Source of the DNA: an uncultured bacterium
Lineage (GTDB): Bacteria; Patescibacteriota; Minisyncoccia; Phycocordibacterales; Phycocordibacteraceae
Direction of reading: 5' to 3'
Assembly (NCBI GenBank): GCA_963759775.1
Contig: CAVXAH010000001.1
Location: 528,682 to 592,681 of the forward strand
DNA length: 64,000 bases
This document shows, piece by piece, positions 2,991 to 37,481 of the stretch. Position 1 is the stretch's first letter. Each line of letters opens with the position of its first letter. The notes under the pieces are model-generated. The model was not told where the DNA came from and did not search any database. It saw only the letters and a program-made list of their open reading frames with translations. A program made the translations under genes and the position numbers.

Positions 2991-3222
2991 GTAGGTTTTT
3001 AAGCAAAACTGCTTCGTTTAGATAAAAACCAATTATGGGAACATGCATACCCTGAAAGATTTCAGGTTGTATTGCTTAGCTTTATCGTCTCGGCAAGACG
3101 AGTTTCACACAAAGTTTCCCATATGAGGGGATAGAGAGCTTCTTTGAAGGTCATTTGCACCCTTCAAATCCGGCAGGTTCTTCATCAATTCTTATCCTCC
3201 TTTTTTGTCGCAGAATCCTTGA

Positions 3223-3253
3223 GAAAACCCTTGTCTTTCAAGGGTTTTCTTTG
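3223..3253 (+). promoter_or_regulatory. terminator-like hairpin inside the 5' leader of the giant gene
   Basis: gaaaaccctt (3223-3232) pairs with aagggttttc (3240-3249) and is followed by tttg, 34 nt before GTG 3287. A second hairpin ttgaagg...ccttcaa lies about 60 nt further upstream. Confidence 0.35.
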
Positions 3254-3286
3254 AAACGGCGTAGTAGAATAACCTGTATACAAACT

Positions 3287-6200
3287 GTGAATAAGAACGT
3301 ACTAACTTCAGCTGCACTTTCGGTACGTACAGGAGTTCTCCTGACGCGGTTTTTTGCCCTCGCTCTAGCGGTCTTTTCTGTGCTATTTCCATACGGCGCC
3401 GTGCACGCAGCGGTTGGTGTTCCGGAAATTATAAACACACAAGGTCGCCTGCTTGATTCAAACGGAAATTTGCTCGGCGGCACGGGTACTAACTTCTGTT
3501 TCCGTTTCGCGCTCTATGACGATGCGACCGTCGGTGCACCAGACTCAAAAGTGTGGCCCGCAGGAACCCCCTCCACAATGTCGGTCTCCGTAAAGAACGG
3601 CGTGTTCAACGCAGGGGTCGGCGATACCGCGGCGGGAGGCGACACGCTTGACTACAATTTTCAAGACAACGATGCCGTGTATCTTTCCATTGAAGTTGCC
3701 GCGCAAATTTCTGGATCATGTACGGGCGTTACGTTTGAAACTCTTTCACCACGCCAACGAGTTGTCTCATCTGGTTTTGCGATCAACGCATCAACCGTTG
3801 GAGGATTCACACCGTCGCAAACCCCGTCGGGCTCAAACATTCCAGTTCTTTCAAGTGGACATCTCACGCTCTCCGGAACGAATCCGCAATTTAATGCGAG
3901 CGGTTCCAACACACTCACTTTGCAAGGTGGTGGCGGAACGGGTGCCGTGCAATTTTTCTCGTCATCAAACAGTTTGACTTCCGCGGGTGCTCTCACAATC
4001 GCGGGCGCGCTCACTGCAAATGGATCTGCCACGTCAACATTTGCAGGAGGCATTTCGCTCTCCTCCGGAAATATAAATCTTGCTTCCACCTTCGCATATC
4101 TGATCAACAATCTCCGCATCCTCGATGCAACAACACTCGGCTCCTCGGTCGTGAACTCCTCTCTCACCTCCGTTGGCGCGTTAAATGCGGGTTCCATCAC
4201 GAGCGGTTTCGGCGCAATTGACACGGGGGCGGACAACATCACGACAACAGGACTTGGTACCTTTGGGAATCTTCTTGCTACCGGAAGTAGCACGTTTCAA
4301 AACTTTACGGCGGTTAATGCAACCACGAGCCAAGCAACGACAACAAATCTCGCCATTTCAAGCATCGTTTCTTCTCTCCTCAAGACCAACGCATCAGGCG
4401 CAGTTGTGCCAGCTATTGCGGGCACTGACTACGCGACCTCTGCGGTAACCGCCATCGGCCCATTAGGCCAAACTGCCGACGGTCCTACCGTGACCCTTGC
4501 CTCTTCAACAAGCGTGACAAATGGACTCACTTCCGCGATCGCCGTGACTGGTTCAGGTGACACTCTTACGTTCACGCCAAGCCTCTCTGGAACACTGACG
4601 GTTCCTGGCGGAGGTACCGGCTCTACCACGCTCTCAGGAATCTTGCGAGGCAACGGCACGAGCGCGGTGCAAACACTTCTCATCGGTACTGGTCTTACCT
4701 TTGACGGCACCACCCTTTCTTCAACGGGAGGTGGTGGGGGCTCCGGAAATGTTTCTACCTCCAGTGTTCCAACGGTGGGGAATCTCGCATACTGGACCGG
4801 AAACGGAACTCCTTCAACACTCGGCGATGTTGCAACGACAACGCTCTCAGGAACCGGTGCCGTGAACGTTTCAAATTCTCCTATCATCATTGGCACTTCT
4901 CCTGCCGTCATCTCGCTCGGCACGGTCCCGGTTTCAAACGGCGGAACAGGGAATGCAATACTCACCGCAAACACCGTACTGCTTGGTAATGGCACGGGCG
5001 CCATTGCCACAACGTCAGCAGGGACGAACGGACAAACACTCGCACTCGTGAATGGTGTGCCGACGTGGACAGCAACCACAACTGCCGGCACAGGTCTTTC
5101 ATATTCGGGAGGTTCTTTCAACGTAAACACATCCCAAAACATCGCGACACTTTCAAACCTTACGACAAACGGTTTTGTTAAAACGGTCGGAGGAAACGGA
5201 ACACTCACGGTTGATACCAGCACATACCTCACGGGGAACGAAACGATTACGCTCTCGGGTGATGTCTCGGGAAGTGGAACAACCGCAATTTCAACGACTC
5301 TTGCCACCGTGAATGCAAACACGGGATCCTTCGGTTCTTCAACTCTCATACCTTCTTTTACCGTGAATGCAAAAGGTCTCATCACCGCCGCCTCAACCAA
5401 TGCGGTCATCGCACCTGCCGGAACACTGACCGGCACATCACTCGCTTCAAACGTGGTCTCATCGTCTCTCACCAGCGTCGGTACGATTTCTTCAGGAACG
5501 TGGAATGCAAGCACGGTCAGTGTTCCGTACGGCGGTACCGGCAACACCACCTTCACCACCAACGGTCTTTTGTATGGAAACGGAACAAGTGCGATTTCAG
5601 CAACGGCGGCAGGAGATCCTGGTGAACTCATTGTGGCGAATGCTTCAAGTGTTCCGGTCTTCCGCACGCTTTCAGGCGACGCCACTCTTTCTTCTGCGGG
5701 CGCACTTACGCTCGCAAACTCAGGCGTCACCGCATCCACCTACGGAAGCGCCTCTCAAGTTCCCGTTATCACGGTTGATGCAAAGGGAAGAGCCACCGGA
5801 ATCACGAACACGGCGATTGCAATCAATGCAAACCAAATCACTTCAGGCACACTTCCCGTTGCAAATGGCGGAACGGGGAATACAACACTCACTTCAAACG
5901 CCGTACTTCTTGGCAACGGCACAAGTGCCATCACCACCACCTCACCAGGAACAAATGGGCAAGTGCTCGCACTCGTGAACGGCACTCCAACATGGACTGC
6001 AACTTCCTCAATCAACAATGGGGTTACCTCGCTCACGCAAAATGGTGGAGGGTCTCCACAAACAGGAGCGCTGACGATTGCAACATCATCAGATACGAAT
6101 CTTCTTTTGAACGTAACCAATTCAGGAAGCACTTTTACTTTTACACCCGCATGGAGCGGTATTCTTGCGGTTAGTCGTGGAGGTACTGGAGCAGCGACCT

Positions 6201-9200
6201 TCACTACGAACGGTGTTTTGTATGGCAATGGCGGCTCAACCCTCTCGGTAACCTCCGTGGGCTCAGGAGGACAAGTGCTTATTGCCAACGGTTCAGGTAT
6301 TCCAACATTCACCTCTTTCTCGGGAGACGCAACCGTTGGAAGTGGGGGGTCACTTTCAATTTCAGCGGATGCCGTTGCGCTTGGTACCGATACGACTGGC
6401 AACTACATCGCCTCAATTACCGCAGGAGCGGGTCTCACGGGTGATACGGCAAGCGAAGCCGCTGTCGCGGCGCTTGCGGTGGGAGCAGGAGACGGAATTA
6501 TTGTTGGAGCAGATTCAATTACGATTGACTCAATCACGTCTGGCGTGACGGTGATATCGTCTGCAAACTCCGGTCTTGAAGTTACTTCAGGAGGTCTGCG
6601 ACTTCTTGGTGGTTGTGACGATAATGATATTTTGAAATGGAATTCGTCGTCGCAGGTATGGGCTTGTGACACTGATGAAGAGGGGAGTAGTTCTGGAAAT
6701 GTCTCCACCTCAACAACACCAAACATTGGTGATCTCGCGTACTGGACCGGAAACGGAACCCCTTCAACACTCGGTACAGTAGCAACGTCTTCACTCACGG
6801 CCGGTTCCGAATTTTCATACTCAGGGACGCTCGGCGCATTTGTTGGTGGGTCTTCAGGCACGCTCTCTCTTGCGACAAACGGCATCTCACTCACGAAGCT
6901 CGCACAAATTGCAGCGAACTCCATCCTTGGAAACACAACAGGTGTCACCGGCAATGTCACCGCTATTTCTACTTCAACTCTTGGCATTGCGCTCTCTGAC
7001 ACGACCGGCACATTAAGCGCATCTCGTGGTGGTACTGGATCCACAACCCTTTCGGGTATTTTGAGAGGCAACGGCACAAGCGCTATTCAAACACTCGTCG
7101 TTGGTTCAGGGCTCTTGTTTGATGGAACAACACTCTCAACGACTGGCGGAGGAGGATCAGGAAATGTTTCAACCTCTAGTGTTCCGACCGTGGGCAATCT
7201 TGCGTACTGGACCGGCAACGGAACGCCTTCAACACTCGGCGACGTTGCAACGACAACGCTTTCTACTTCAGGCGCTCTCTCGCTTTCTGCAAATCCAATT
7301 GTGATTGGTTCATCGCCAATCACGCTCTCCCTTGGAACGGTACCGGTAGCAAATGGTGGCACGGGCTCTACCACGCTCACGGGACTTTTGAAAGGAAATG
7401 GCACGGGAGCCGTTCAGTCTGCGGTTTCTGGTACCGACTACCAAGCACCCGGCGCATACATCACCGCACTCACCGGAGATGTCACCGCATCGGGTCCTGG
7501 ATCTGCGGCGGCGACACTTGCTTCAACCGGAGTCACCGCAACTTCGTACGGAAGCTCAACTGCAATTCCGTCATTCACCGTTGATGCTAAAGGAAGACTC
7601 ACCACCGCCTCAACCAACGCGGTCATCGCACCTGCCGGAACACTGACTGGCACATCACTCGCTTCAAACGTGGTGACGTCCTCATTGACCGCGGTTGGCA
7701 CACTCACCAGTGGTACGTGGAATGCGGGAACGATTGGAGTGGCGTATGGCGGTACCGGAAATAGCTCACTCACGACGAACGGCATTTTGTACGGGAACGG
7801 CACCTCGGCGGTTGGTGCGACAGCACCCGGAGATCCTGGCGAACTTATTGTCGCGAACGCTTCAAGTGTCCCTGTCTTCCGCACACTCTCTGGAGATGCA
7901 ACGCTCGCGTCTTCCGGTTCACTCACACTCGCAAATTCAGGAGCAACACCTGGCATTTACGGATCGGCATCGCTCGTACCCGTACTTACCGTGGACTCAA
8001 AAGGACGAATCACTTCAATCACAACCGCGACTGTATCAGGCGGTGGAGGGGGAGGGGGAACTGGAAACGTTGCAACATCTACGACAGAGACGGCAGGATT
8101 TCTTGCGTACTGGACATCAACCGGCGCTTCGCCAGCAACCCTTGGAAAAGTTGCGACCACAACCCTTACGGGAACGGGCGCCGTGAGCGTCTCAAACGCA
8201 CCGCTCATCATTGGCTCTACTCCTGCCGTTATTTCACTCGGCACGGTTCCGGTTTCAAACGGCGGAACGGGCTCCACCACGCTCGCATCCTCACAGCTTT
8301 TGTATGGATCAGGAACGAATGCGGTTCAAAGTGTTGCCACCACCACCATCACCGCCTCAAGTCCACTTTCTTTTGGAAGCGACCCAGTAGTCATTGGAAC
8401 GTCACCGTACACTCTTTCGCTCGGCACCGTAGGCATCGCGAATGGCGGAACCGGACTCACCGCAGTACCGACGAACGGTCAACTTCTTATTGGAAATGGT
8501 ACGGACTATACGCTCGCAACACTTACTGCAGGAAATGGTACTGCCGTTACGAACGGCTCAGGAACCATAGGTCTCGCGGTTCAACTTCTTGATGCCGCGG
8601 ACGGCATTGGAAACACCAGTTCGCGTTCCGGTCTTGAGTTTGGTGATATCGGCAACAATGAACTCACCCTTATCCAAGGCTGTGGTGACGGAGAAGTTCT
8701 TAAATTCTTTACTTCAAGTAAGGCGTGGGAGTGTTCGACGGACACAGGAGCCTCGCAAAACACATTCCTCAATGTAATCGCAGATGACGCGACAACTGCG
8801 GTCGCGGACGCGACGACCGACACCTTGCAACTCTTTGGTGGAAATGGTGTTTCTACGGTCGGTGACGCATCAAATGATCGCATCACTTTTAATCTTGGAA
8901 ATCTCACAAGCAATTGGGACCAGTCAGGTGCATTCAGTCTGCGGCTTTTGAACGCAGGTTCAAACTTGGTCATTCAAGAAAATGGAGGCGGTTCCGACAC
9001 GGCAACCATAGATGTTGCCGCCCTTTCAGGGAATCGTACCTACACCTTTGAAGGAAACTCAGGAAATATTTTGACTGATCAAAATGCATCGGGCTTTCTG
9101 GACAGTACCTATGTAAACTTTGCCGAAGCACCCTCGGCAGGAGACATCACGGGCTCTTTCTCAGGAGGACTTTTTGTTGGCGCAAATACCGTCGCACTTA

Positions 9201-12200
9201 GCACTGATACCACGGGGGATTACGTTACTTCAATCACAGCAGGAAACGGGCTCGGGGGAACAGGGCTTACGGGAGAAGGGTCAACACCAACTCTTTCCGT
9301 AAATGTAGGAGACGGACTCCAGCTTTCTTCAGATGCCGTCAATTTTGCGCTTCACACGACTGGTCCAGGACTTCAGGCAGATGGCAATGGCCTCTCTCTT
9401 ATTCGTACCTGTGGGGACGGAGAGCTTTTGAAATACACCGCAGCTTCCGGTTGGACTTGTGGATCAGACGCGGGAGCAGGGTCTTCGCCATTTGCCACGG
9501 CAGGGGGGCTCATTACCAAATCAACAGCAAGCGATCGACTTGAATTGCAATACGGCACCCCAGGCGATATTCAGTTTAAAATTACAAATGTTACGGCAAG
9601 TAATGACAGTGCACCGACGGCCGACGCAATGCAGATACTCCTCACGGGAGATGCAGAGGCAGATGCTATTACCACGGGTGGTGTTGATGGACTTTACATT
9701 AACGCGCTCTTTGGTGCAGTGACAGGAGACAACGTCGCCTTACTCCATCTTGACCTTGATACCGCAACCACCTCCTCACCAAGCGGAACGTTTGATGCAA
9801 TACGTATTGATGCTATTCCGGGTTCGGGAGCACAGGAAACGGCAATTGAAATCGGTTCAGGATGGGACAACATTTTGGACACAGGAAGCGTGGACATCAC
9901 CGGAACAGGAAATATTTCCGGTGTAAATGACCTCACGGTGGTGGGTACCGTAAAACTTACGGGGGCAGCATATGCAAACTGTAAAGGCACTGCCGCAAAC
10001 CAAGGAGCGCTTACCGTTGCCGCAGATGGCACGGTGGAGTGTACGGCAGACGACGGTGGTACCGGTACTTCATGGTCGTCACTCACGAACCCAAGCGGAA
10101 ACCTTGCTCTTGTTCACAACGAAAACAAAACGACGTTTACCTGGGACACGGTAGACACAACCGTTTCACCTTTTGATGGCATCACGTTTGCCATCAATAA
10201 CGATGCATCTGTTGATGCTCAAACGCAACGCATCGTCGTCATTAAAAACAATCTCGTTTCCGCCGGAGGTACCATCGAACGTCTTTTGGTACTTGATAAC
10301 GCCGACGGCGGTACGGTACCAACGGCTCTTGAGATTGGCGGATTCGGCGCTATCACGACCGCGATTGATGTCTCCTCTTCAACTATCGGCACCGCAATCG
10401 CTTTTGGTGCAAACGATATTATAGGTACCAATTTCTCAGTCACGGGTGGAACAGGAAATGTTATTACCTCCGGAGATATTGCCGTAAACGGTGGAGATAT
10501 TACTTCAACCAGCGACCTTACTCTTGATGCTCAAGATGGAACACCAACGATTTTCATTGCTAGTGGCGACAATCTACAACTTCAGTCAACCGGAAACATC
10601 CTCCTTGGCACCGGTCGCTTAGACGTTGCGTCGGCAGGGAACTTGAATATTGGTATCACGACCGCAACGGCCGTTGTGATTGGAAACGGCTCAGGAGACT
10701 CTTCCGTACAACTGCCAAGTCAATCAGTAGGCTCAACAGAGATTGTGGACAATGCTATTGGTCAAGCCGACATAACGGACGACTCACTTGATTTTGCAGA
10801 CTTCCAGGACGCTCTTGATCTTGATGCAAACACAACACTACTCTCAACGCTCACCGGTATCGGTCTTGATTATGCACTTTCACCAACGGGCGCTGGTACC
10901 ACCACGGCGTGGGAGATTACCCCAACTATTGCGAGTGGTGTTTCTCAAGAACTTCGTGGCATTCACATAGATCCGGTAACGACAAACGGAAACGCAGGAG
11001 ACTTTATTCAGGGTATTTTGATAGACAATATTACGGGCACCGCTTCCGTTGATACCGGAATCCACATAGGTACGGGATGGGATACGGGCATCCTTGTTGA
11101 TGGCGGGGGAGTCACTATCTCCGCCGGCGCTCTCGCGGTGAACTCTGACTCCATTACCTCCGACGGCACACTACTTATAGACTCAAGCGGTATCGTACGA
11201 CTTGGTTCAAACGACAATCTTGAGCTCCAAGGGTCAGGAAATTTACTTATCGCAGGCGCGAGCGGACGACTTGATGTGAATTCTCTCGCAACGCTCAATA
11301 TTGGTACCACCAATGCGACGGCGGTTGTGATAGGAAATGGAGCAAATACGACGAGCGTTACTATCACCACCACAGCAGCAGGAAATACGGCGCTCGTGGT
11401 GCCAGACCAATCCATTGGAAACGCAGAAATTGCTCTTGATACACTTGACTACGCACAGTTTGACGACTCCCTTGATCTTGATGCAAACACGACGCTTGCC
11501 TTTGCGGGGTTCAACCTCACACATAACTTAAACTCCACGGGAGATTTTCTCATACAGGATGCGGGTACCATCTTCGCACAATTCCTCGATGACGGCACCA
11601 TCACTTTTGGAAAAGCTTCCGGAGCAGGAACGATTAATGTTGGCGTCGGAACCGCAATTGACACTATTAATATTGGTACCGACGCGACCGCAAGTGATGT
11701 GGTGCGGATTGGTTCGTCAAATGCTGACCTCGCACTCACGGACGCACAGTGGTCTATCACCACCTCGGGACTCATCACCACCGCAGATGATATTGCGGTA
11801 AATGGGGGAGACATCACCACAACCGCAAGCACAGGAAATATTTTCAACGCAAACGCGGCAACGGTAAATATTGCAGGGGCCGCGACACTTTTCAATCTTG
11901 CGGACTCAACGACGGTGAAAACAATAGACATTGGCGGTGTCACGGCAGACGGTACGGACACTATCAATATTGCAACCAACGGGACATCAAACAGCGACAC
12001 TGTCACTATCGGAAATTCAAATGGGGGAACCTCAGTCGCGATCACGGGAGGTGATGCGTGGGGCATCTCAGCTACAGGTGTACTCACTCTTTCTACCGAC
12101 GCGTCACCGACGACTGCCATTCTCGCCGTTGATAGCGGATATACCAACTTTGCTGATATTGCCGACAATCATATTATCGGTACAACGCCAAACCTAGACT

Positions 12201-15200
12201 TTACCAACTTTGATGTGGTCGGTTCAACCGGTTCGGTCATCATTGATAACGCAGGGAACACAGGTTCTTTAACAATAGAAGGAACAAACCTAGATATCAA
12301 CTCTCTTGATTTTGTCGGTGCTGGAGCATTCACGACCGGATCAAATGGAAATCTTACGCTGACGCCACATGGTTCAGGTGACGTCATTATCAGCGTTGAC
12401 GCAAACACAAACGTTCAGCTCACTGGCGGCGCAGATGGTGCAAATGCACTCACGGTTGCGGCGGGTGACGTGGTGTTTTCTGACGGCGACTTTACACTTC
12501 TCAGTGGCGACTTTGATGTAACGCTTGATAATGGTGACGGTGCTGGAATAACTTCCGGCTCTGCCGCAACAGCGGACCTTCTCACTCTCGCCGTGACTGG
12601 TGTTGGCTCTGACGGACTCCAAATTAATGCAACACAGCTAGATGATGCGGACGCGACCGATACAACGCGTGCACTGCAGATTTCTGTCACCTCAAATTCA
12701 GGAGACGCAGACACGGTGTATGGAATCACCATAGACAATCTCACGGGGGGCACCGCGAATGAAACTGCACTTTCTATTGGTACGGGTTGGGATACCGGCA
12801 TTATCGTTGGTTCTGGCGGGGTAACTATTTCCTCAGGCGCACTTGCGGTCAATTCAGGCTCTATCACTTCCTCTAGTGGTTCAGGTCTTACCATCAACCC
12901 GATTGATTTCCTGTATCTTGCCTCAGGAGACTCACTCCAGCTTCAGGGTTCGGGCAATTTCTTACTCGGCACGGGTCGTCTAGACACCTCAGCGGGAGCA
13001 ACCCTTAACATTGGTACGACAAACGCTACGGCGATTACGTTTGGCAACGCATCAACTGAGAATTTAATAGTTACGACAAATGGCACCGGTGACTCGGAAG
13101 TACAGCTTCCAACAGGCTCAATAGGTTCAGGAGAAATTGCAAACGGTTCCATTACGCAACTAGACATCGCCGACGACTCTCTTGATTGGGAAGACTTTAA
13201 AGATGCCATGACACTTGATGCGGCAAGCACCATCACCTCTTCCTCAATAAACGGAACATCGCTTTCGCTGAATGTGTCTCCGGACGGTTCCGCTGGTGCT
13301 CCCATTGCATTTCAGGTTACGCCTACCTGGGGTGTAGACACCACCGACCAAACATTTGTTGGTATCAATATTAATCCAAGTACCAATTCAAATACCGACA
13401 GTGGCGATACTCTTATTGGTCTTCAAATCGCGGGTGTGACCGGTACGGTTGGCACAGAAACGGCGCTTCTTATTGGAAGCGGTTGGGACACTTCTATAAG
13501 TGCGGCAGGGAAGGTGGATGTGGGAGGAATTATTGAAGCAGGTTCAAGCAATATTACACTCACTAACAGCACCGGTCAGATTGTTGCGGGCGCATACGCG
13601 AGCCAATCTATTGATGGCGACGACATTGCGGCGTCTATTGCCGGAAGCGGTCTCATTTTGAACACGGCAACGACGCCGGATCAAATTGACATTGATCTTA
13701 TCAACATCGCAGACGCAACGGGTGTCTCAAGTTCAAACTCAGGACTTGAGTTTGGTGGTACTGCAAATGAACAATTAGGACTCCTGCGTGGCTGTGGCGA
13801 CGGACAGCTCCTCAAATGGGTATCGGCCACCTCCGAATGGCAGTGTTCGACCGACGTTTCTGCGGGTACACCGGCATTGAACCAGATTTCTGCCGCACTC
13901 ACCGAAGGTACACCACAAGACTCAAACGAAAACACCGTTCGATGGAACTGGGACTTTACCGGAGGTGGCGCAGCGGATGACTCCGGACTTGTTATTTCAG
14001 AATCCACGGCCTCAACGGCGGGTGAGCAGGATAAGAAATCTTTGTTGGAGATTATTACGCTCGCGGGGTCGCTCGCTTCGCCACTTCAGGTGACCGCAGG
14101 CGGAACAGACGTGGGCGACATATGGTTTGACCTTCAAGGAACCGCTGATTTTGAAATCCGAGAAAACGGTCGCGCACTCGCACGCTTCAACGATGATGCA
14201 AGTATTTATCTTGGAGAAGCAACCACAACATCCTTGATTGATATTGGTGGATCAGCCTCAGACACTATATATATAGCAACCAGTACCGCCGCAGGGGATA
14301 CCGTGGTTATTGGCAACAACCACAGCGCTACCACACTCGTGCTTGATGCGGGTACCGGTGCAAGTGCGATTCAGCTTGGGAACAGTGCCACAGCACACGG
14401 TATTAAGATTGGCACGGGAGCAGCGGCACAAACGGTCACTCTTGGATCCCAAAACTCCACTTCCTCCACAACTATTCAGTCTGGGACCGGCGATCTGTTT
14501 GTGGTTTCAACAGATCAGCTCACGGTGGATGCTGTCGGCATCCTTGAGCTCAATTCCTCTGGTGGCGTAATCTCCATCGGAAACGACGCTGTTGCTCAAA
14601 ACATCAACATTGGAACTGGCGCTGCGGCAAGAACTATCACGGTCGGTAATGGTACTGGCGCCACTGGGTTACGACTTAACACGGGTACGGGTGGTCTCAT
14701 TGCAAACACCCTCACAGGAGGATTTATCTTTACTACCTCATCTACCACCGCACAGGCGATTAATATAGATGTAACAGGTACCGGTGGGGGAATAGATATT
14801 GATACGACCGACGGCGCCTTCTCCCTAACTACGGGCGGAGCAACGAACGGCGACATCAACTTCTTGGCAGGAGACGTGTTTGACATTGACTCTGTTGATT
14901 CACTTTCCCTTAACGCTTCAGCGGGAGTGATAAACATTGGTGATGACGTTGTTTCGCAGGCAATAAATATCGGTACCGGTGGCAGTCGCAGCATTCTCAT
15001 TGGTAATACGACGCCAAATACAGCAATCACTCTTAACTCAGGTGGAGCGGGGGACATTGCCGCAAACTCAGCAGCAACACTCACTTTGGATTCAGTAGGA
15101 GTTCTTGAACTCAATTCCTCGGGAGGAATAATTTCAATAGGAAATGATAACGTCAATCAAAATATCCGTATTGGCACCGCCGGCAACCGCACCATCACTC

Positions 15201-17350
15201 TTGGCGTCACTGGCGGCTCAACCGCACTAAGCCTTATTTCCGGCACGGGTGATATCACTCTCTCTTCCGATGACGATGTCACCATTAACGGAGCGGGAGC
15301 AACGGCAGTTATTGGCATTGGTACGGCATCGGTTGCCCAAACCATTAATATTGGAAATGTAACAGGAGCTACTCTGGTCAACATTGATGCGGGAACGGGC
15401 GGCATCACGCTGGATTCAACCGGTGTTGGCGATATTTTGCTCAATTCTTCGGACACGATTCTCATGGACTCCGCAAACGCGCTCTCCATCAACTCCTCTG
15501 GTGGAGTGATCTCCATCGGCAACAACGCCGTCAACCAAAACATCAACCTCGGCACCGCCGGCAACCGCACCATCACTCTTGGCGTCACTGGCGGCTCAAC
15601 CGGTCTCGCTCTTAACGCAGGTACGGGCAATATCGCACTCACTACCTCCTCAACCGGAGACATCACCCTCAACTCCACGGACACAGTGTTGATCGACTCT
15701 GCTGGTGTCTTGCAGCTCAACTCCTCTGGTGGAGTGATCTCCATCGGCAACAACGCCGTCAACCAAAACATCCAAATCGGCACCGCCGGCAACCGCACCA
15801 TCACTCTTGGCGTCACTGGCGGCTCAACCGGTCTCGCTCTTAACGCAGGTACGTCCGACATCACTCTTTCCTCAGACGACGACATCTCTATTAACGGGGG
15901 TGGAGCAAGTGCCGCCATTGACATTGGAACCATTGGAACCGCTCACACCATCACCCTCGGCAACTCCACGGGCGCCACCTCGCTCGCGCTTAACACCGGC
16001 ACCGGTCTTCTCACTGTCGGCGCAAACGCCATCGCCCACACCATCGTGATCGGCAACAAAACGGGCGACTCCTCAGTCCTCATTGATTCAGGGACCGGCA
16101 ACATTGATATTGGTACCTCAACGGCGAAGACTATTCGCGTGGGAAATGCGACAGGTGCAACAGCTCTGATACTTGCCGCAGGTACCGGCGATCTCGCCCT
16201 CACCTCAACCGACCTCCTCACTCTTGATTCCGCAAACGCGCTCTCTATCAACTCCTCCGCTGGCGTGATCTCCATCGGCAACAACGCCGTCAACCAAAAC
16301 ATCCAAATCGGCACCGCCGGCAACCGCACCATCACTCTTGGCGTCACTGGCGGCTCAACCGGTCTCGCTCTTAACGCAGGTACGTCCGACATCACTCTTT
16401 CCTCAGACGACGACATCTCTATTAACGGGGGTGGAGCAAGTGCCGCCATTGACATTGGAACCATTGGAACCGCTCACACCATCACCCTCGGCAACTCCAC
16501 GGGCGCCACCTCGCTCGCGCTTAACACCGGCACCGGTCTTCTCACTGTCGGCGCAAACGCCATCGCCCACACCATCGTGATCGGCAACAAAACGGGCGCC
16601 TCCTCAGTCCTCATTGATTCAGGGACCGGCAACATTGATATTGGTACCTCAACGGCGAAGACTATTCGCGTGGGAAATGCGACAGGTGCAACAGCTCTGA
16701 TACTTGCCGCAGGTACCGGCGATCTCGCCCTCACCTCAACCGACCTCCTCACTCTTGATTCCGCAAACGCGCTCTCTATCAACTCCTCCGCTGGCGTGAT
16801 CTCCATCGGCAACAACGCCGTCAACCAAAACATCCAAATCGGCACCGCCGGCAACCGCACCATCACTCTTGGCGTCACTGGCGGCTCAACCGGTCTCGCG
16901 TTGAATGCAGGATCAGGCAATGCTGTTGTTACGAGCGCAACCATAAACCTTGCCGCCAGCGCAAATCTCCAGATAAATGGAGCAAACGGTGCAACCGCGA
17001 GTTGTTCCGGAACACTCTCTTCAACCATTACTACCACAAAAGGAATGGTCACCACCCACGCATGTACTTCAGACCAGCGGCTGAAGTCGAATTTTGGTGA
17101 GTTTAGCAATGTCCTAAATCGAATACAAGATATTCGAGGTGGTACATTTTATTACAACGACCTGTATCGTCAGTTGAGCGGGGACACGGAGAATTTTGAC
17201 ATACACTCAGGCTTTTTAGCGCAAGAGGTTCAGAGAACTTTTCCTGAGCTTACAAAAAGTTCAAGTATCACGGAATTATTGCGTTCGCGGAAGATGGGGT
17301 TACGCCGCACACAATTGGATTATCCAAAATTGCTCGTGGCCATTGCCTAG
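3287..17350 (+). CDS. giant secreted Gly/Thr/Ser-rich repeat protein (~4,687 aa) with C-terminal tail-fibre/peptidase S74-like intramolecular chaperone domain
   Basis: The frame is uninterrupted for 14.06 kb. GTG 3287 gives [41 protein letters not shown]|AVG, a signal or anchor. It contains many internal repeat modules. The C-terminus reads SDQRLKSNF...[14 protein letters not shown]...[10 protein letters not shown]. The track start TTG 3155 was rejected (see notes). Confidence 0.85.
15488..16889 (+). repeat. in-frame tandem repeats inside the giant gene (228-nt older unit, then 531-nt unit x2.2 at near-identity)
   Basis: The unit starts atcaactcc at 15488, 16247 and 16778 (equivalent position 15716 in the first 531-nt copy, which begins ctcaactcc). 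Positions 15738-16246 and 16269-16777 differ at one base (a16068 vs c16599). 16778-16889 repeats the first 112 nt. Confidence 0.9.
17069..17347 (+). other. peptidase S74-like / intramolecular chaperone auto-processing domain (domain of the giant CDS)
   Basis: S-D-x-R-L-K-x-N, then GFLAQEV..FPEL, then DY.KL. These are the hallmark motifs of the endosialidase and tail-fibre C-terminal chaperone domain. Confidence 0.6.
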
Positions 17351-17692: not shown

Positions 17693-18199
17693 GTGCAGCC
17701 AGTCGTAACAGCTTCTATGACCTTTGAGGAGGGCGACTTGGTGGCGAGCGCAGACGCCGATGTCCTTTTCGCCTCCGATATTCGCTACTTAGTGATGAAG
17801 AAAGATTCAACCGGCTTCACTATCCGCCTCAACAAAGCTGCTCCAAGAGACATTCGATTCTCCTGGGTTGCACTTGCTATTAAAGACGCAAACGTCTCGT
17901 GGAGCCTTCACGAAGGACTTTCTCCCGTCATACCTCCAGCAAACCCAACATCGCCACCAGCTCCAGAGCTGACCCCAGAACCCACACCAATAGATGAGCC
18001 AACACCTCCTCCCGCAGAAGAACCCGTCGCGACAAGTACGCCACCAATGAGCGAGCCCGAACCGGAACCCGCTCCAGAGCCTGCACCCGAACCAACTCCT
18101 GAACCTGAACCAACTCCTGAACCTGCGCCCGAGCCAGCACCGGAACAAACTCCAGAACCAACTCCAGAACCTGAGCCAGCTCCAGAGCCAGCGCCGTAA
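17693..18199 (+). CDS. C-terminal beta-domain plus Pro/Glu/Ala/Thr-rich tail; probably the displaced C-terminus of the giant protein
   Basis: The frame is open from 17564 and is the same phase as the giant ORF. ...GFTIRLNKAAPRDIRFSWVALAIKD is followed by about 80 aa of PEP/PAP/PTP repeats. There is no credible start or RBS of its own (GTG 17693 only). Confidence 0.5.
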   Translation: MQPVVTASMTFEEGDLVASADADVLFASDIRYLVMKKDSTGFTIRLNKAAPRDIRFSWVALAIKDANVSWSLHEGLSPVIPPANPTSPPAPELTPEPTPIDEPTPPPAEEPVATSTPPMSEPEPEPAPEPAPEPTPEPEPTPEPAPEPAPEQTPEPTPEPEPAPEPAP

Positions 18200-18205
18200 T
18201 CGCGT

Positions 18206-18547
18206 ATGAAATTAACTTCATTGCACGTCGCTTACACCGCAGGACTTATCGCGGCACTCGTCATCGTTGGTCTCGGATGGTTTTGGTTTTCTACTTCCCA
18301 TGAAGACGAGACCGCGCGCGTTGCGCGCGCGGTCGCAGAGCTCGCAATCGTCCCCGATGAGATTCCCATCATTACGACCGTTACTGACCCCACAAAACTC
18401 GCCGACACCCCACTCGCAGGCGAAGCAAAGGTGGGGGACAAGGTACTTTTCTACCAAAACGCCAAACGTCTGATCCTCTACCGTCCTTCCGAGAATCGCA
18501 TTGTTGATATTGTGCCTTTTAAAATTGGCGTAACGCCCTCGCCATGA
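18206..18547 (+). CDS. hypothetical N-terminally membrane-anchored protein
   Basis: 113 aa with a single TM (AYTAGLIAALVIVGLGWFWF). It starts 6 nt after the previous stop. I recognise no domain. Confidence 0.55.
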   Translation: MKLTSLHVAYTAGLIAALVIVGLGWFWFSTSHEDETARVARAVAELAIVPDEIPIITTVTDPTKLADTPLAGEAKVGDKVLFYQNAKRLILYRPSENRIVDIVPFKIGVTPSP

Positions 18548-18566: not shown

Positions 18567-18593
18567 AATTAACGAGGTCCGACCTCGTTAATT
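18567..18593. repeat. REP-like palindrome, copy A (3' flank of RAYT gene)
   Basis: aattaacgaggtc-c-gacctcgttaatt has perfect 13-nt arms. The central base is inverted relative to copies B and C. Confidence 0.8.
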
Positions 18594-18597
18594 TACG

Positions 18598-19230
18598 CTA
18601 GTCTTCAATTTCTTTTTGGAGCCACTCAAAGCCTTCAAAATCTTTTCTATATTCTCTTGGTCCACCAAAAAAATCAAGAAAGAAACTTTTATTTACGAAA
18701 GGATACATATTAGTTCCGAGTACGTAATCACGGTAACTACTCCACGGATAATCCTCCAGTTTTTCTCCGCGCGCGAGTGCATCAATCGGGTTTTTATGGA
18801 TGTAGTGGGGGATATACATAAACTGCGCATCCCGCTCAATCAATACCGCTTTAAACTTTCCTTGGAAAAGAGGTCCCACGCGTTCGTTCTTCTTGTTGAA
18901 ATACATGGTGTACCCGGTACATACTTTTTGCATAAATTTAGAAATCCCACCCTCTTCTATTTGACGTAACAGTAAATGGAAATGATTCGACATTAGAGCG
19001 AAGGCCAAAATTTCTACAAGCTCTTTTTCATAACGAGGTCGGACCTCGTTAATTTCCTTATTGAGCAGATAAGTAGTGTTGTTCGCCGCGTTGGACGTAT
19101 TAAATGTCTCAAGCGAATTGACGAAACGAGCATACTCTTTCGGTGTTTGGAATATAAAACGTTTTTCAACTCCACGATTGAAAACATGATAGATTTCTCC
19201 CGCAACGAGCGAAGGTTTCTGCATATACAC
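18598..19230 (-). CDS. REP-associated tyrosine transposase (RAYT, IS200/Y1-like)
   Basis: 210 aa. The motifs are YHVFNRG, LMSNHFHLLL (HUH) and YIHKNP (catalytic Tyr helix). Confidence 0.75.
   Translation of the reverse strand: MYMQKPSLVAGEIYHVFNRGVEKRFIFQTPKEYARFVNSLETFNTSNAANNTTYLLNKEINEVRPRYEKELVEILAFALMSNHFHLLLRQIEEGGISKFMQKVCTGYTMYFNKKNERVGPLFQGKFKAVLIERDAQFMYIPHYIHKNPIDALARGEKLEDYPWSSYRDYVLGTNMYPFVNKSFFLDFFGGPREYRKDFEGFEWLQKEIED
19030..19053. repeat. REP-like palindrome, copy B (inside the RAYT coding sequence)
   Basis: ataacgaggtc-g-gacctcgttaat. On the coding strand it encodes ..INEVRPRYE.. in frame. Confidence 0.75.
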
Positions 19231-19235
19231 ATTCT

Positions 19236-19258
19236 ATAACGAGGTCGGACCTCGATAA
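19236..19258. repeat. REP-like palindrome, copy C (5' flank of RAYT gene)
   Basis: ataacgaggtc-g-gacctcgataa, located 6 nt upstream of the RAYT start codon. Confidence 0.75.
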
Positions 19259-23346: not shown

Positions 23347-23488
23347 TTCAAAAATATAAGCCCTACTACGCTTCTTAAGAAAGAAGCTTCGAAGGGCACT
23401 ACTTCGTATAGCAAAAACCACCCGATGTGATAATCAAGTGGTTTGTGCCGTGCACTTCGAAGCACTGAGTCTTCGAGGTGCGAAGTAG

Positions 23489-23926
23489 TGGAGGCGGGGA
23501 GAGTCGAACTCCCGTCCGAATCTGACGATGAAAGCGCTTCTACGACGCGTAGTTTTGATTAAGGTTTAGGAAAGGGTGTGAGAACCAAAACGAAACCACT
23601 CCTTTCCGATCCCGAAGCCCGTCACACTTATGCAGTGTGGCGGGCGAATTTAAGTAAGTCGGATGGGCGTCCGGCTACCGTACTCACAGATAATTCCGCC
23701 TCTCTCTGCGCTGTGAGCGCCGTGAAGAAAAAGACGTCGCTTAGGCGAAGAAGCCGTGAGGCTTACGCGTAAGCGAACGCAAAATCCTTCATACCGAAGT
23801 ATGGGGACTTTACGCTTGCAAGAGTGTTCTTTGCAAGTATGTTGCTCAATCGGATTTAGGTGGCAGATGAGCGTGCACCGCGTCGCGCGTTTTTCAAAGT
23901 ACAGACCGTCAAAGCCGGTCACCCCC
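23489..23926 (-). ncRNA. ssrA: tmRNA (SsrA), one-piece
   Basis: 5' GGGGGTGACCGGCTTTGACGG. 3' GGGAGTTCGACTCTCCCCGCCTCCA gives a T-arm plus an acceptor with G3.U70. The internal frame ends ...KDFAFAYA-TAA inside a hairpin. It is adjacent to smpB. CCA is not encoded. Confidence 0.85.
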
Positions 23927-36991: not shown

Positions 36992-37362
36992 TCGGACCAA
37001 GCTAGACGATCGCTTCGTGCGCCTATGGCGCATGGGGAGGAAAGTCCGAGCACGGGCGGCGCGAAAGCGCCGCAGAAGGGTAGCGGGTAACGCCCGTCGT
37101 CCGCGAGGACAGAGGTGCCTACAGAGACGCTCCACGCGAAAGCAAGGAGATTCCTTTCGGGGAAGGGTAGTCCCATTGCAAGATGGGGGTGCAACGAACA
37201 AATCCTTACCTCCGTGCAAGGCCGTATCGCTAACAACAGTTGGCGGGGAGCCGCTTGAGGCGATGAGTAATCATCGTCCCAGATACATGATCGTTGTCAC
37301 CCCGTCACACTGCATAAGTGTGGCGGGCACTGAACAGAACTCGGCTTATCGGCTCGGTCCAC
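36992..37362 (+). ncRNA. rnpB: RNase P RNA, bacterial type A
   Basis: GGAGGAAAGTCCGAGC and ACAGAACTCGGCTTATCGG universal motifs. P1 pairs GGACCAAGC with GGCTCGGTCC. A TATAAT box sits at 36983-36988. The ends are approximate. Confidence 0.85.
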
Positions 37363-37401
37363 ACAAAACGCCGCGTCCCTTTTTGGGCGCGGCGTTTTGT
37401 G
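37362..37401 (+). terminator. hairpin after rnpB
   Basis: cacaaaacgccgcg/cgcggcgttttgtg is a 14-bp stem. Confidence 0.5.
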
Positions 37402-37481
37402 TGGAATACGGAGTCTTGCCCATTCGCGGATGGAGTATACTTAGGGGTATTAGCACTTACGAGCAATAGACAATTTTATTT

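Follow-up and report, generated by a model that had tools for sequence, protein, structure and literature searches.

The locus described here, a gene for a Y1 HUH enzyme accompanied by copies of one palindrome in a 64-kb stretch of contig CAVXAH010000001.1 (hereafter the window, meaning the stretch at its full length), has its closest described counterparts among the repetitive extragenic palindromic (REP) sequences and the REP-associated tyrosine transposases (RAYTs). The Y1 family has been classified by Quentin, Siguier, Chandler and Fichant (2018, PMC6006769), and in that classification the tyrosine motif Y---NP marks class 2 (RAYT/TnpAREP), the motif Y---Q being that of IS200. In subclass 2.4, which corresponds to group 4 of Bertels, REPs are found in frame inside the tnpAREP genes themselves, with the reading frame undisrupted (PMC6006769). 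The RAYT gene of Escherichia coli is single-copy and vertically inherited (PMC6006769, PMC5581495), and its TnpAREP product cleaves and rejoins DNA at hairpins in vitro (PMC6006769). Rickettsia palindromic elements (RPEs) and intragenic GTAG/CGTC REPs lie in frame in coding genes, including tRNA synthetase and DNA repair genes (Di Nocera et al. 2013, PMC3733652). Publications thus already exist on REPs in frame within RAYT genes and within other genes, and the feature is not categorically new; an earlier note on this DNA, made from the sequence alone, had known of no in-frame copy within a RAYT gene, a view overtaken by the 2018 description of subclass 2.4. The present locus differs from that published case in enzyme subclass, in the positions within the protein, in REP type (a perfect palindrome without foot) and in host group, namely bacteria of the Candidate Phyla Radiation (CPR). 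The feature is a family-wide architecture in these bacteria, with concerted evolution, and is far more general than one gene.

Within the window, TAACGAGGTC-S-GACCTCGTTA occurs three times, and all three copies belong to a single RAYT-like gene, one following its stop codon, one preceding its start and one inside its coding sequence (Table 1). The downstream copy is an exact 21-mer match at 18570-18590, with C at its centre, and extension of its arms to 13 bp gives the limits listed. The internal copy, named site 1 hereafter, is carried by codons 58-66 (19027-19053) and read as I58-N-E-V-R-P-R-Y-E66. The upstream copy stands 12 nt before the ATG, or 6 nt before an alternative GTG. No further match was detected in the window when three mismatches to the 21-mer or one mismatch to the 13-nt core were allowed, and three matches were reached in none of 100 dinucleotide-preserving shuffles. 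Exact searches and shuffles therefore agree on the three copies pointed out in the earlier note, which are real and not due to chance. When folded as single-stranded DNA (ssDNA), the downstream, internal and upstream copies yield -11.1 kcal/mol (z = -6.4), -8.0 kcal/mol (z = -4.3) and -5.5 kcal/mol (z = -2.7), respectively. No Rfam RNA family was matched over the region of the palindromes and the gene.

The gene is single-copy within the window, and its product is an intact RAYT-type Y1 HUH enzyme, as shown by its Pfam score, its HUH and Y---NP motifs and its fold match. The ATG is the likelier start, since the homologs begin with M-x-K-P; a longer minus-strand open reading frame (ORF, 18598-19230) begins at the alternative GTG, 19230. 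The Pfam domain Y1_Tnp (PF01797) is recognized at 32.3 bits, above its cut-off of 23 bits, while the NCBIfam equivalog model NF047646 (REP_Tyr_transpos) reaches 44.7 bits against a cut-off of 80 and matches residues 59-164 only; the comparison with known families proposed in the earlier note thus places the protein in the Y1 domain family and leaves it below the threshold of the dedicated RAYT model. The motifs cited in that note hold good: besides the HUH and tyrosine motifs, the protein of 208 residues carries F120-Q-G and the tail motif W161-S-S around its YIHKNP, in line with the family consensus ...LMPNHFHLL..., ...LFQGRFKAV..., ...YIHxNPL..., ...YRWSS... of proteins of 224-240 residues. 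An AlphaFold2 (AF2) model was built on an alignment of 38 sequences and has a mean predicted local distance difference test score (pLDDT) of 84 and a predicted template modelling score (pTM) of 0.82. Its best Protein Data Bank (PDB) match by Foldseek is the E. coli RAYT in complex with a REP hairpin, 4ER8_A (E = 1.5e-5, template modelling score 0.64 on the target), followed in order by the ISDra2, IS608 and IS200 TnpA chains. The window protein and 4ER8 have 14% sequence identity, and a sequence-profile search of PDB chains returned nothing at E <= 0.01.

The palindrome is not restricted to this gene. An exact scan for AACGAGGTCNGACCTCGTT over one genome per species (596 Gb) returned 26 loci, mostly in CPR metagenome-assembled genomes (MAGs). 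Since about 9-17 chance sites are expected in 596 Gb by our own estimate, lone matches outside the CPR mean little, whereas clusters on CPR contigs do matter. Four of the loci encode homologs of the window protein, at 40-45% identity, and each of the four has the palindrome within the gene, at the equivalent position. The family was then described on 85 genes, namely the window gene, four earlier loci and the best 80 of more than 570 confirmed metagenome relatives, in which detection of a palindrome required six paired positions only (the 6-nt inner arm). These 85 homologous genes carry 181 cognate palindromes with 18 distinct 6-nt inner arms, including GAGGTT, GAAGTC, GAGGTC, GACATC, GAGGCT, GTAATC and AGGGTC, and types with a 3-nt centre are also present. 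Palindromes are found just 5' of the start and 3' of the stop in nearly every gene, with one common arm in the two flanks at most of the homologs, and the upstream copy stands 12-55 nt before the start codon in most of them. At site 1, the loop equivalent to window residues 54-66, a palindrome with the inner arm of the gene's own flanks is present in 44 of the 85 genes, and such an own-flank arm is seen in 44 of the 46 site-1 palindromes, over the 18 arm variants. A second position near residue 155, termed site 2, holds a flank-matching palindrome in 14 of the 85 genes, eight of which have both sites filled; elsewhere inside a gene, only one flank-matching palindrome was detected. The layout common to the relatives is therefore an upstream copy, site 1, sometimes site 2, and a downstream copy, which amounts to three to five cognate hairpin copies per gene within ~1 kb, as in L027, where TATCGAGGTT-S-AACCTCGATA occurs at -47, +170, +449 and +651. 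The internal palindromes are up to 37 nt long. The earlier note had proposed, as a test, to look for relatives with the internal palindrome at the same codons; L107 (59% identity), the closest relative among those with DNA, is one, with its own variant, GAGCGAGGTTAAACCTCGCTC, before the start, at the same codons (read S-E-V-K-P-R-S) and after the stop. The position-wise consensus over 180 palindromes is TAT-C-GARGTY-S-RACYTC-G-ATA, with no GT[AG]G at either foot. In a small sample of three distant plasmid relatives from outside the CPR (<30% identity), no internal palindrome was found, and one of the three has a flanking pair.

The internal copies are maintained as DNA. The same palindrome is read N-E-V-[R/G]-P-R in the window and in L006, and Q-R-G-P-T-S-L in L007, L019 and L023, while L006 carries a second internal copy, near codon 155, read T-R-S-D-L-V. 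All three frames are used at site 1, with counts of 30, 4 and 10. In most of the 60 closest database homologs, site 1 has the form x-E-V-[EQKRGS]-P-[QR]-Y and site 2 the form Y-[RG]-G-[SRP]-T-S, which are exactly the peptides encoded by the palindrome GAGGTx-N-x'ACCTC in frames 0 and 1. The DNA is thus conserved across frames in divergent proteins and is therefore kept at the nucleotide level.

Base pairing extends beyond the selected inner arm and is specific to each locus. The unselected positions just outside the inner arm are paired in 70%, 93%, 93% and 90% of cases, with lower values further out. The seventh pair from the centre (alignment A2, columns 7/21) is thus paired in ~70% and pairs 8-10 in ~90% or more; the weakness of this pair may reflect a coding constraint, or it may represent a conserved mismatch or bulge such as HUH enzymes recognise in hairpins. 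In an alignment of 137 palindromes, one outer pair is UA in 86, GC in 25, CG in 9 and AU in 7, and the covariation score of the outer pairs is 0.659, compared with 0.20 in shuffles (none of 500 reached the observed value) and at most 0.13 with slid partners. With its own flank, an internal copy has on average 9.7 bp per arm in common, versus 6.8 with flanks that carry this inner arm at other loci (p = 2e-9). Each locus thus has an outer stem of its own, variable between loci and repeated in its internal and flanking copies. In L042 and L073, whose proteins are 60% identical, the internal palindromes are 35 nt long and differ only at the centre base and at one compensated pair (GAGGTT/AACCTC and GAGGCT/AGCCTC, respectively), and the changed pair is found in all four L073 copies. 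Conversely, the proteins of L080 and L084 are 82% identical and their inner hairpins are different. Such compensatory, locus-specific outer stems indicate that, as DNA, the internal copies evolve together with the flanking ones. The inverted orientation that the earlier note had ascribed to the flanking copies is carried by the centre base alone, C downstream and G upstream on the + strand; this is correct for the window but is no rule of the family, in which C and G are about equally frequent at each position and, of the 51 scorable genes, 28 have complementary centre bases in the nearest upstream and downstream copies and 23 have identical ones. A shuffling of protein modules at site 1 was also considered and rejected: pairwise identities of the N-terminal, core and tail parts are within noise, the largest absolute z being 3.3 among 3403 pairs.

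In the AF2 model, site 1 lies between the helix 50-57 and the strand 70-77, in a loop that leads into the HUH strand, and residues 59-63 form the sole segment with a pLDDT below 50; site 1 of the window protein is accordingly predicted to be a disordered loop. Site 2 is located in the model in the loop that follows the tyrosine helix 132-149. The site-1 loop averages 28.3 residues in genes without a detectable palindrome and 30.8 in those with one, and many of the former show decayed versions. These similar lengths are indicative of replacement or decay in place and not of empty versus filled sites. At site 2, two states are observed: the loop either is conserved, at 25 residues, and lacks a palindrome, or is shorter and contains one. 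In the window, this loop has 12 residues and no palindrome and, being shorter than in the relatives, may be a decayed site.

Copies away from the gene are scarce. The REP label used in the earlier note implies dispersed copies and is not borne out in the window, 64 kb of a 594,792-bp contig, where none is present in the 62.8 kb outside the gene and its 300-nt margins and where the GT[AG]G foot is absent. In the relatives, 14 solo copies were found in 205 kb, at 12 of 69 loci, compared with ~0.01 expected by chance, and one Saccharibacteria MAG has palindrome matches on seven contigs. Among the 39 copies of the core GAGGTC-S-GACCTC in the scanned CPR MAGs, 14 are inside ORFs of at least 100 residues and the remainder lie mostly a few to some tens of nucleotides from ORF ends. 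The core is found in frame inside the ArgRS, GatB, ComEC, TsaD, GrpE, TrmD and PyrF genes of other CPR MAGs (Table 1), in ArgRS as a dimer of two core copies 27 nt apart. The element can therefore lodge in coding DNA, like Rickettsia RPEs and some REPs. We found no description in the literature of in-frame palindromes in CPR housekeeping genes.

Table 1 Positions of the palindromes, of the gene and of its motifs in the window, and of palindrome copies in housekeeping genes of other CPR MAGs
Feature	Position	Strand	Details
Downstream palindrome AATTAACGAGGTC-C-GACCTCGTTAATT	18567..18593	.	13-bp arms; 4 nt past stop codon
Internal palindrome TAACGAGGTC-G-GACCTCGTTA (site 1)	19031..19051	.	exact, centre G, in frame
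Upstream palindrome TAACGAGGTC-G-GACCTCGATA	19237..19257	.	one outer-arm mismatch; centre G
Y1 HUH (RAYT-like) gene, 208 residues	18598..19224	-	start ATG 19224; stop codon 18598-18600
HUH motif N80-H81-F82-H83	18976..18987	-	from translation; H81 and H83 invariant in 38-sequence alignment
Tyrosine motif Y141-I-H-K-N-P146, class-2 Y---NP form	18787..18804	-	Y141, H143 and N145 invariant in 38-sequence alignment
Loop A151-R-G-E-K155, equivalent to family site 2	18760..18774	-	from alignment; no palindrome in window
Housekeeping-gene copies	L005:3357-3396, L012:5556, L020:4047, L022:5052, L009:1869, L011:6468, L021:2021		

Taken together, the locus is probably a REPtron-like CPR unit, composed of an intact RAYT-like Y1 HUH nuclease/transposase, present in single copy, and its cognate palindromes, the latter being homogenised by an active process. 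The palindromes can form hairpins on either strand, and we infer that the enzyme would recognise its own hairpins in ssDNA, as the E. coli RAYT and the IS608 TnpA do. The internal copies would be REP units lodged in two protein loops that tolerate extra residues, and the peptide INEVRPRYE would be a by-product of the DNA element, not itself selected. All copies near the gene could be rewritten, and thus evolve in concert, through the cut-and-rejoin activity of the enzyme or through short-tract conversion between neighbours; by analogy with the described enzymes, the most plausible homogeniser would be cleavage and rejoining at the hairpins by the enzyme itself. A regulatory use of the internal copy, if any, would be secondary. 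An active process is invoked because point mutation with selection, acting by itself, would require a matched pair of changes to arise in every one of the three to five copies. Several points weigh against this explanation. Hairpin binding and cutting are expected from homology only, at the low identity to 4ER8 given above, and the score with the NCBIfam RAYT model is under its cut-off. The window is without a solo copy and does not show REP-like spread in this genome. The similar lengths of the site-1 loops speak against simple insertion, so that in-place replacement or decay must be assumed. The 85 genes were chosen as the best matches among more than 570 relatives and are not a random sample, and a crude test of the presence of flank versus internal palindromes (30/21 versus 7/8, p = 0.56) gives no significant association, so none is claimed. 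Finally, at least 52% of the members of this family, very diverse as it is, have site 1 filled, which is more regular than passive tolerance predicts and fits a selected role.

This last point bears directly on a possible, though rather doubtful, alternative in which the internal copy is a selected cis-acting site, serving for autorepression or as an origin-like or processing site, and in which the copies match since the same protein reads all of them. The palindrome indeed occupies one fixed position in at least 44 of the 85 genes, through 18 arm variants and three frames, and matches its own flanks beyond the conserved core; the loop stays similar in length once the palindrome has decayed, and the position of the upstream copy before the start is compatible with an operator in most genes. 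However, 41 of the 85 genes with intact catalytic motifs have no detectable matching palindrome at site 1, which is therefore dispensable; site 2 is confined to a subgroup and apparently lost in the window; and the same palindrome stands in frame in unrelated housekeeping genes, where autoregulation cannot apply. It is likewise conceivable, and put forward tentatively, that the in-gene hairpins are obligatory working parts and that the enzyme keeps binding, nicking or replacing cassettes at the two fixed loops. If this were true, part of the protein sequence would be written by the enzyme's own substrate, with specificity and gene sequence locked together, and the CPR would commonly carry HUH genes that edit or regulate themselves, distinct from a passive REP in a loop.

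Explanations that detach the palindromes from a RAYT-type unit fare worse. That the whole arrangement is an autonomous insertion sequence (IS) of the IS200/IS605 type, with the flank hairpins as its ends and an accidental internal copy, is improbable. The Y1_Tnp domain and the hairpins at both ends agree with it, among the RAYT groups it is group 1 that most resembles an IS (PMC5581495), and the unit coincides with a GC trough over 18600-19200 (~0.40, compared with 0.52-0.57 around) whose edges are the palindromes; yet the tyrosine motif is Y---NP and not the Y---Q of IS200 TnpA (PMC6006769), the window has one copy and no tnpB partner, and both ends are the same perfect palindrome instead of distinct imperfect left and right ends. 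Moreover, the contig of P0002, a 67%-identical relative, conserves the neighbouring three-gene operon, with products of 434, 373 and 466 residues compared with 432, 382 and 465 in the window. The ordinary IS200 TnpA that the earlier note had named as the alternative is thus not favoured. Nor does the trough mark a recent transfer, a reading that was rejected since the offset is family-wide: across 58 loci the gene GC averages 7.8 points under the flank GC and is correlated with it (r = 0.83), which looks like long residence in each genome and not recent arrival. It is very unlikely that the palindromes are unrelated to the Y1 protein and act instead as RNA hairpins, by stabilising the transcript, by guiding RNase III processing or by pausing ribosomes, or as host terminators or operators recognised by another factor. 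The copies before the start and after the stop do lie where hairpins of untranslated regions and terminators lie, REPs elsewhere affect mRNA stability and termination (PMC3733652), and, on the + strand, the internal copy together with the ATTTCCTTAT after it receives a terminator-like score. Against this, the terminator scan gives one match, antisense to the gene, for a shuffle mean of 1.8, and the mismatches of the outer stem comprise G.T in 40 and A.C in 48 cases on the coding strand, about equal and without the G.T excess of an RNA; this lack of asymmetry fits a DNA-level element and does not single out the transcript strand. In addition, each gene lineage has its own variant in its three to four local copies, pointing to a factor that co-varies with the gene, namely the gene's own product. 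A terminator or promoter role was rejected on the same ground, the scans being no richer than shuffles. A pairing of the arms as Shine-Dalgarno and anti-Shine-Dalgarno was also rejected, as the consensus of the arms is GARGTY, many variants (GACATC, GTAATC and GATGTT) do not resemble a Shine-Dalgarno sequence and, in the upstream copy, 26 nt separate the GAGGT from the ATG. Finally, a coding constraint, that is, a conserved peptide with a DNA palindromic by accident, or simple chance, has a negligible probability as the origin of the internal match: EV-x-P-R-like peptides do recur at this position in many homologs, but the reading-frame data refute it, the same DNA giving unrelated peptides in three frames; the centre codon shows only residues compatible with a palindrome (E, Q, K, R, G, S), the peptide lies in a loop predicted to be disordered, and chance is opposed by the shuffles.

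Some relatives depart from this scheme. In L109, labelled Marinimicrobia, the palindrome is an inside-out variant, TATCGACCTC-C-GAGGTCGATA, in which the arm halves are swapped with respect to GAGGTC-S-GACCTC; it occurs upstream of the gene, at site 2 (SSYRPPRSIA) and downstream (9959-9985, 10479-10509 and 10707-10733), and site 1 is decayed. L110 contains two paralogous Y1 genes (10001-10687 and 12803-13498), 2 kb apart on one 241-kb contig and flanking a Peptidase_S74 gene. No palindrome of at least 8 bp was found in or near either paralog, and their site-1 and site-2 peptides, QEIESQHI and YGSSTPI, look like decayed versions. Some gene calls among P0034, P0006, P0014, P0020, P0037 and P0118 start with MNEVRPR... 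or end with ...EVEPR or ...EVGPR; these odd ends are annotation artefacts, explained by the called ORF running into the flanking palindrome.

The host is a CPR bacterium, as the earlier note had supposed and as deduced from the FtsZ encoded in the window, whose nearest named relatives belong to Paceibacterota, Kaiserbacteria and Parcubacteria, at 77-81% identity. The placement that the note gave to the gene, between a block for a giant fibre and cohesin/dockerin genes, is also correct: on one side is an ORF of 4731 residues (3155-17350) with a C-terminal Peptidase_S74 domain, and on the other are dockerin and cohesin proteins. The immediate neighbours are an ORF of 113 residues and a dockerin protein. 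Peptidase_S74 (endosialidase chaperone) genes also lie less than 10 kb from Y1 homologs in L109 (18280-20166) and L110 (10786-12693), directly adjoining the homolog in the latter; this may be a recurring neighbourhood or a coincidence. The 113-residue ORF (18206-18547) contains an unrelated GC-rich palindrome with 11-bp arms, GACCGCGCGCG-TTG-CGCGCGCGGTC (18310-18334), and an ORF of 168 residues without Pfam match (17693-18199) ends in a degenerate tandem repeat with 12-24-nt spacing (18035-18196), which encodes a C-terminal tract rich in Pro, Glu, Thr and Ala (EPxPEP...). The RNA genes of the window comprise a transfer-messenger RNA (23486-23926, minus strand), a bacterial RNase P RNA (36994-37364, plus strand) and eight tRNAs; a predicted ORF (37017-37469) that overlaps the RNase P RNA is probably not a real gene.

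These findings bear on how RAYTs move REPs and on why the two co-evolve. With at least 18 hairpin variants, hundreds of genes and one copy in a coding loop, where every change of the DNA is visible as a change of the peptide too, the CPR clade is a compact natural experiment, and its concerted changes, such as the spread of one compensated pair to the four copies of a locus, imply that homogenisation is an active process. The clade links a RAYT subclass reported as REP-less to a REP type without GTAG foot, and genome-reduced bacteria of the CPR are seen to carry Rickettsia-like in-frame palindromes in essential genes. For annotation, the palindromes explain the N- and C-terminal extensions (MNEVRPR..., ...EVEPR) and the variable loops of CPR 'transposase' calls. 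In the literature, of which our coverage is incomplete, we found no description of REP/RAYT systems in the CPR, apart from an incidental KEGG label.

Among the known systems, the REPtrons of subclass 2.4 are the nearest in architecture, with a RAYT-type gene flanked by its REPs and more copies inside its own ORF, where the insertions are described as falling in a peripheral, variable region of the protein (PMC6006769). The place of insertion differs, since site 1 (58-66) precedes the HUH motif at 80-83 and site 2 (~155) follows Y141. On a comparison of motifs only, subclass 2.4 is characterized by NH[IFV]H, WQ and YIxNNP and the CPR family by NHFH, FQG and YIH(K/L)NP. The REPs of subclass 2.4 are long or of a 'double foot' type with GT[AG]G, unlike the perfect palindromes of the CPR copies, which have no such foot; the foot is also missing in subclasses 2.6 and 3 (PMC6006769). 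The hosts listed for subclass 2.4 are Cyanobacteria, Bacteroidetes and others, and the text of that paper, in the part available, contains no CPR name and no mention of co-variation between internal copies and flanks or of the use of several frames in this subclass. By its motifs, and by these only, the CPR clade would fit a subclass 2.1-like group, whose second motif set is NH[YF]H, FQ and Y[IV]HLNP, with SS after the core (PMC6006769). The median length in subclass 2.1 is 238 residues, compared with 208 for the window protein and 224-240 for its relatives. The TnpAY1 proteins of this subclass are the group 1 RAYTs of Bertels and include the TIRYTs of Di Nocera et al. (2013). According to the classification, subclass 2.1 has no REP-like sequences that automatic or manual searches could find, or has long terminal inverted repeats in their stead (PMC6006769); the CPR clade, in contrast, has palindromes both in the flanks and inside the gene. 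Subgroup 2.1.2 possesses a C-terminal helix-turn-helix (HTH) or DnaA_C-like domain, neither of which is detected by Pfam in the window protein.

The likeness to the E. coli RAYT (4ER8) resides in the Y1 HUH fold; the gene of the E. coli enzyme is flanked by REPs, and the enzyme binds the REP hairpin in ssDNA. Unlike the CPR palindromes, the REPs of E. coli form imperfect hairpins, carry a GTAG foot and are present in hundreds of intergenic copies, and we know of no REP copy inside the E. coli RAYT gene. IS608 and ISDra2, of the IS200/IS605 family, also combine the Y1 HUH fold with hairpins near both ends of the unit, whereas this family has the Y---Q motif, distinct imperfect ends with guide tetranucleotides, multiple identical copies and often tnpB, none of which is seen here. 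In pT181 repC and phiX174 gene A, the nick site of the Rep protein lies inside the rep gene, so that the nicking enzyme is encoded by DNA that contains its own cognate hairpin or nick site, as would be the case in the window; these sites are origins of autonomous replicons, while the window gene is chromosomal and single-copy and gives no evidence of replication from the site. The Rickettsia RPEs are comparable in that the CPR palindrome, too, stands in frame in housekeeping genes of other MAGs, although it belongs to a different sequence family from the RPEs and the GTAG/CGTC REPs and has neither a GTAG nor a CGTC tag. Within genes, the CPR clade carries its palindromes most regularly in the RAYT-like gene itself, where they occupy two fixed loops.

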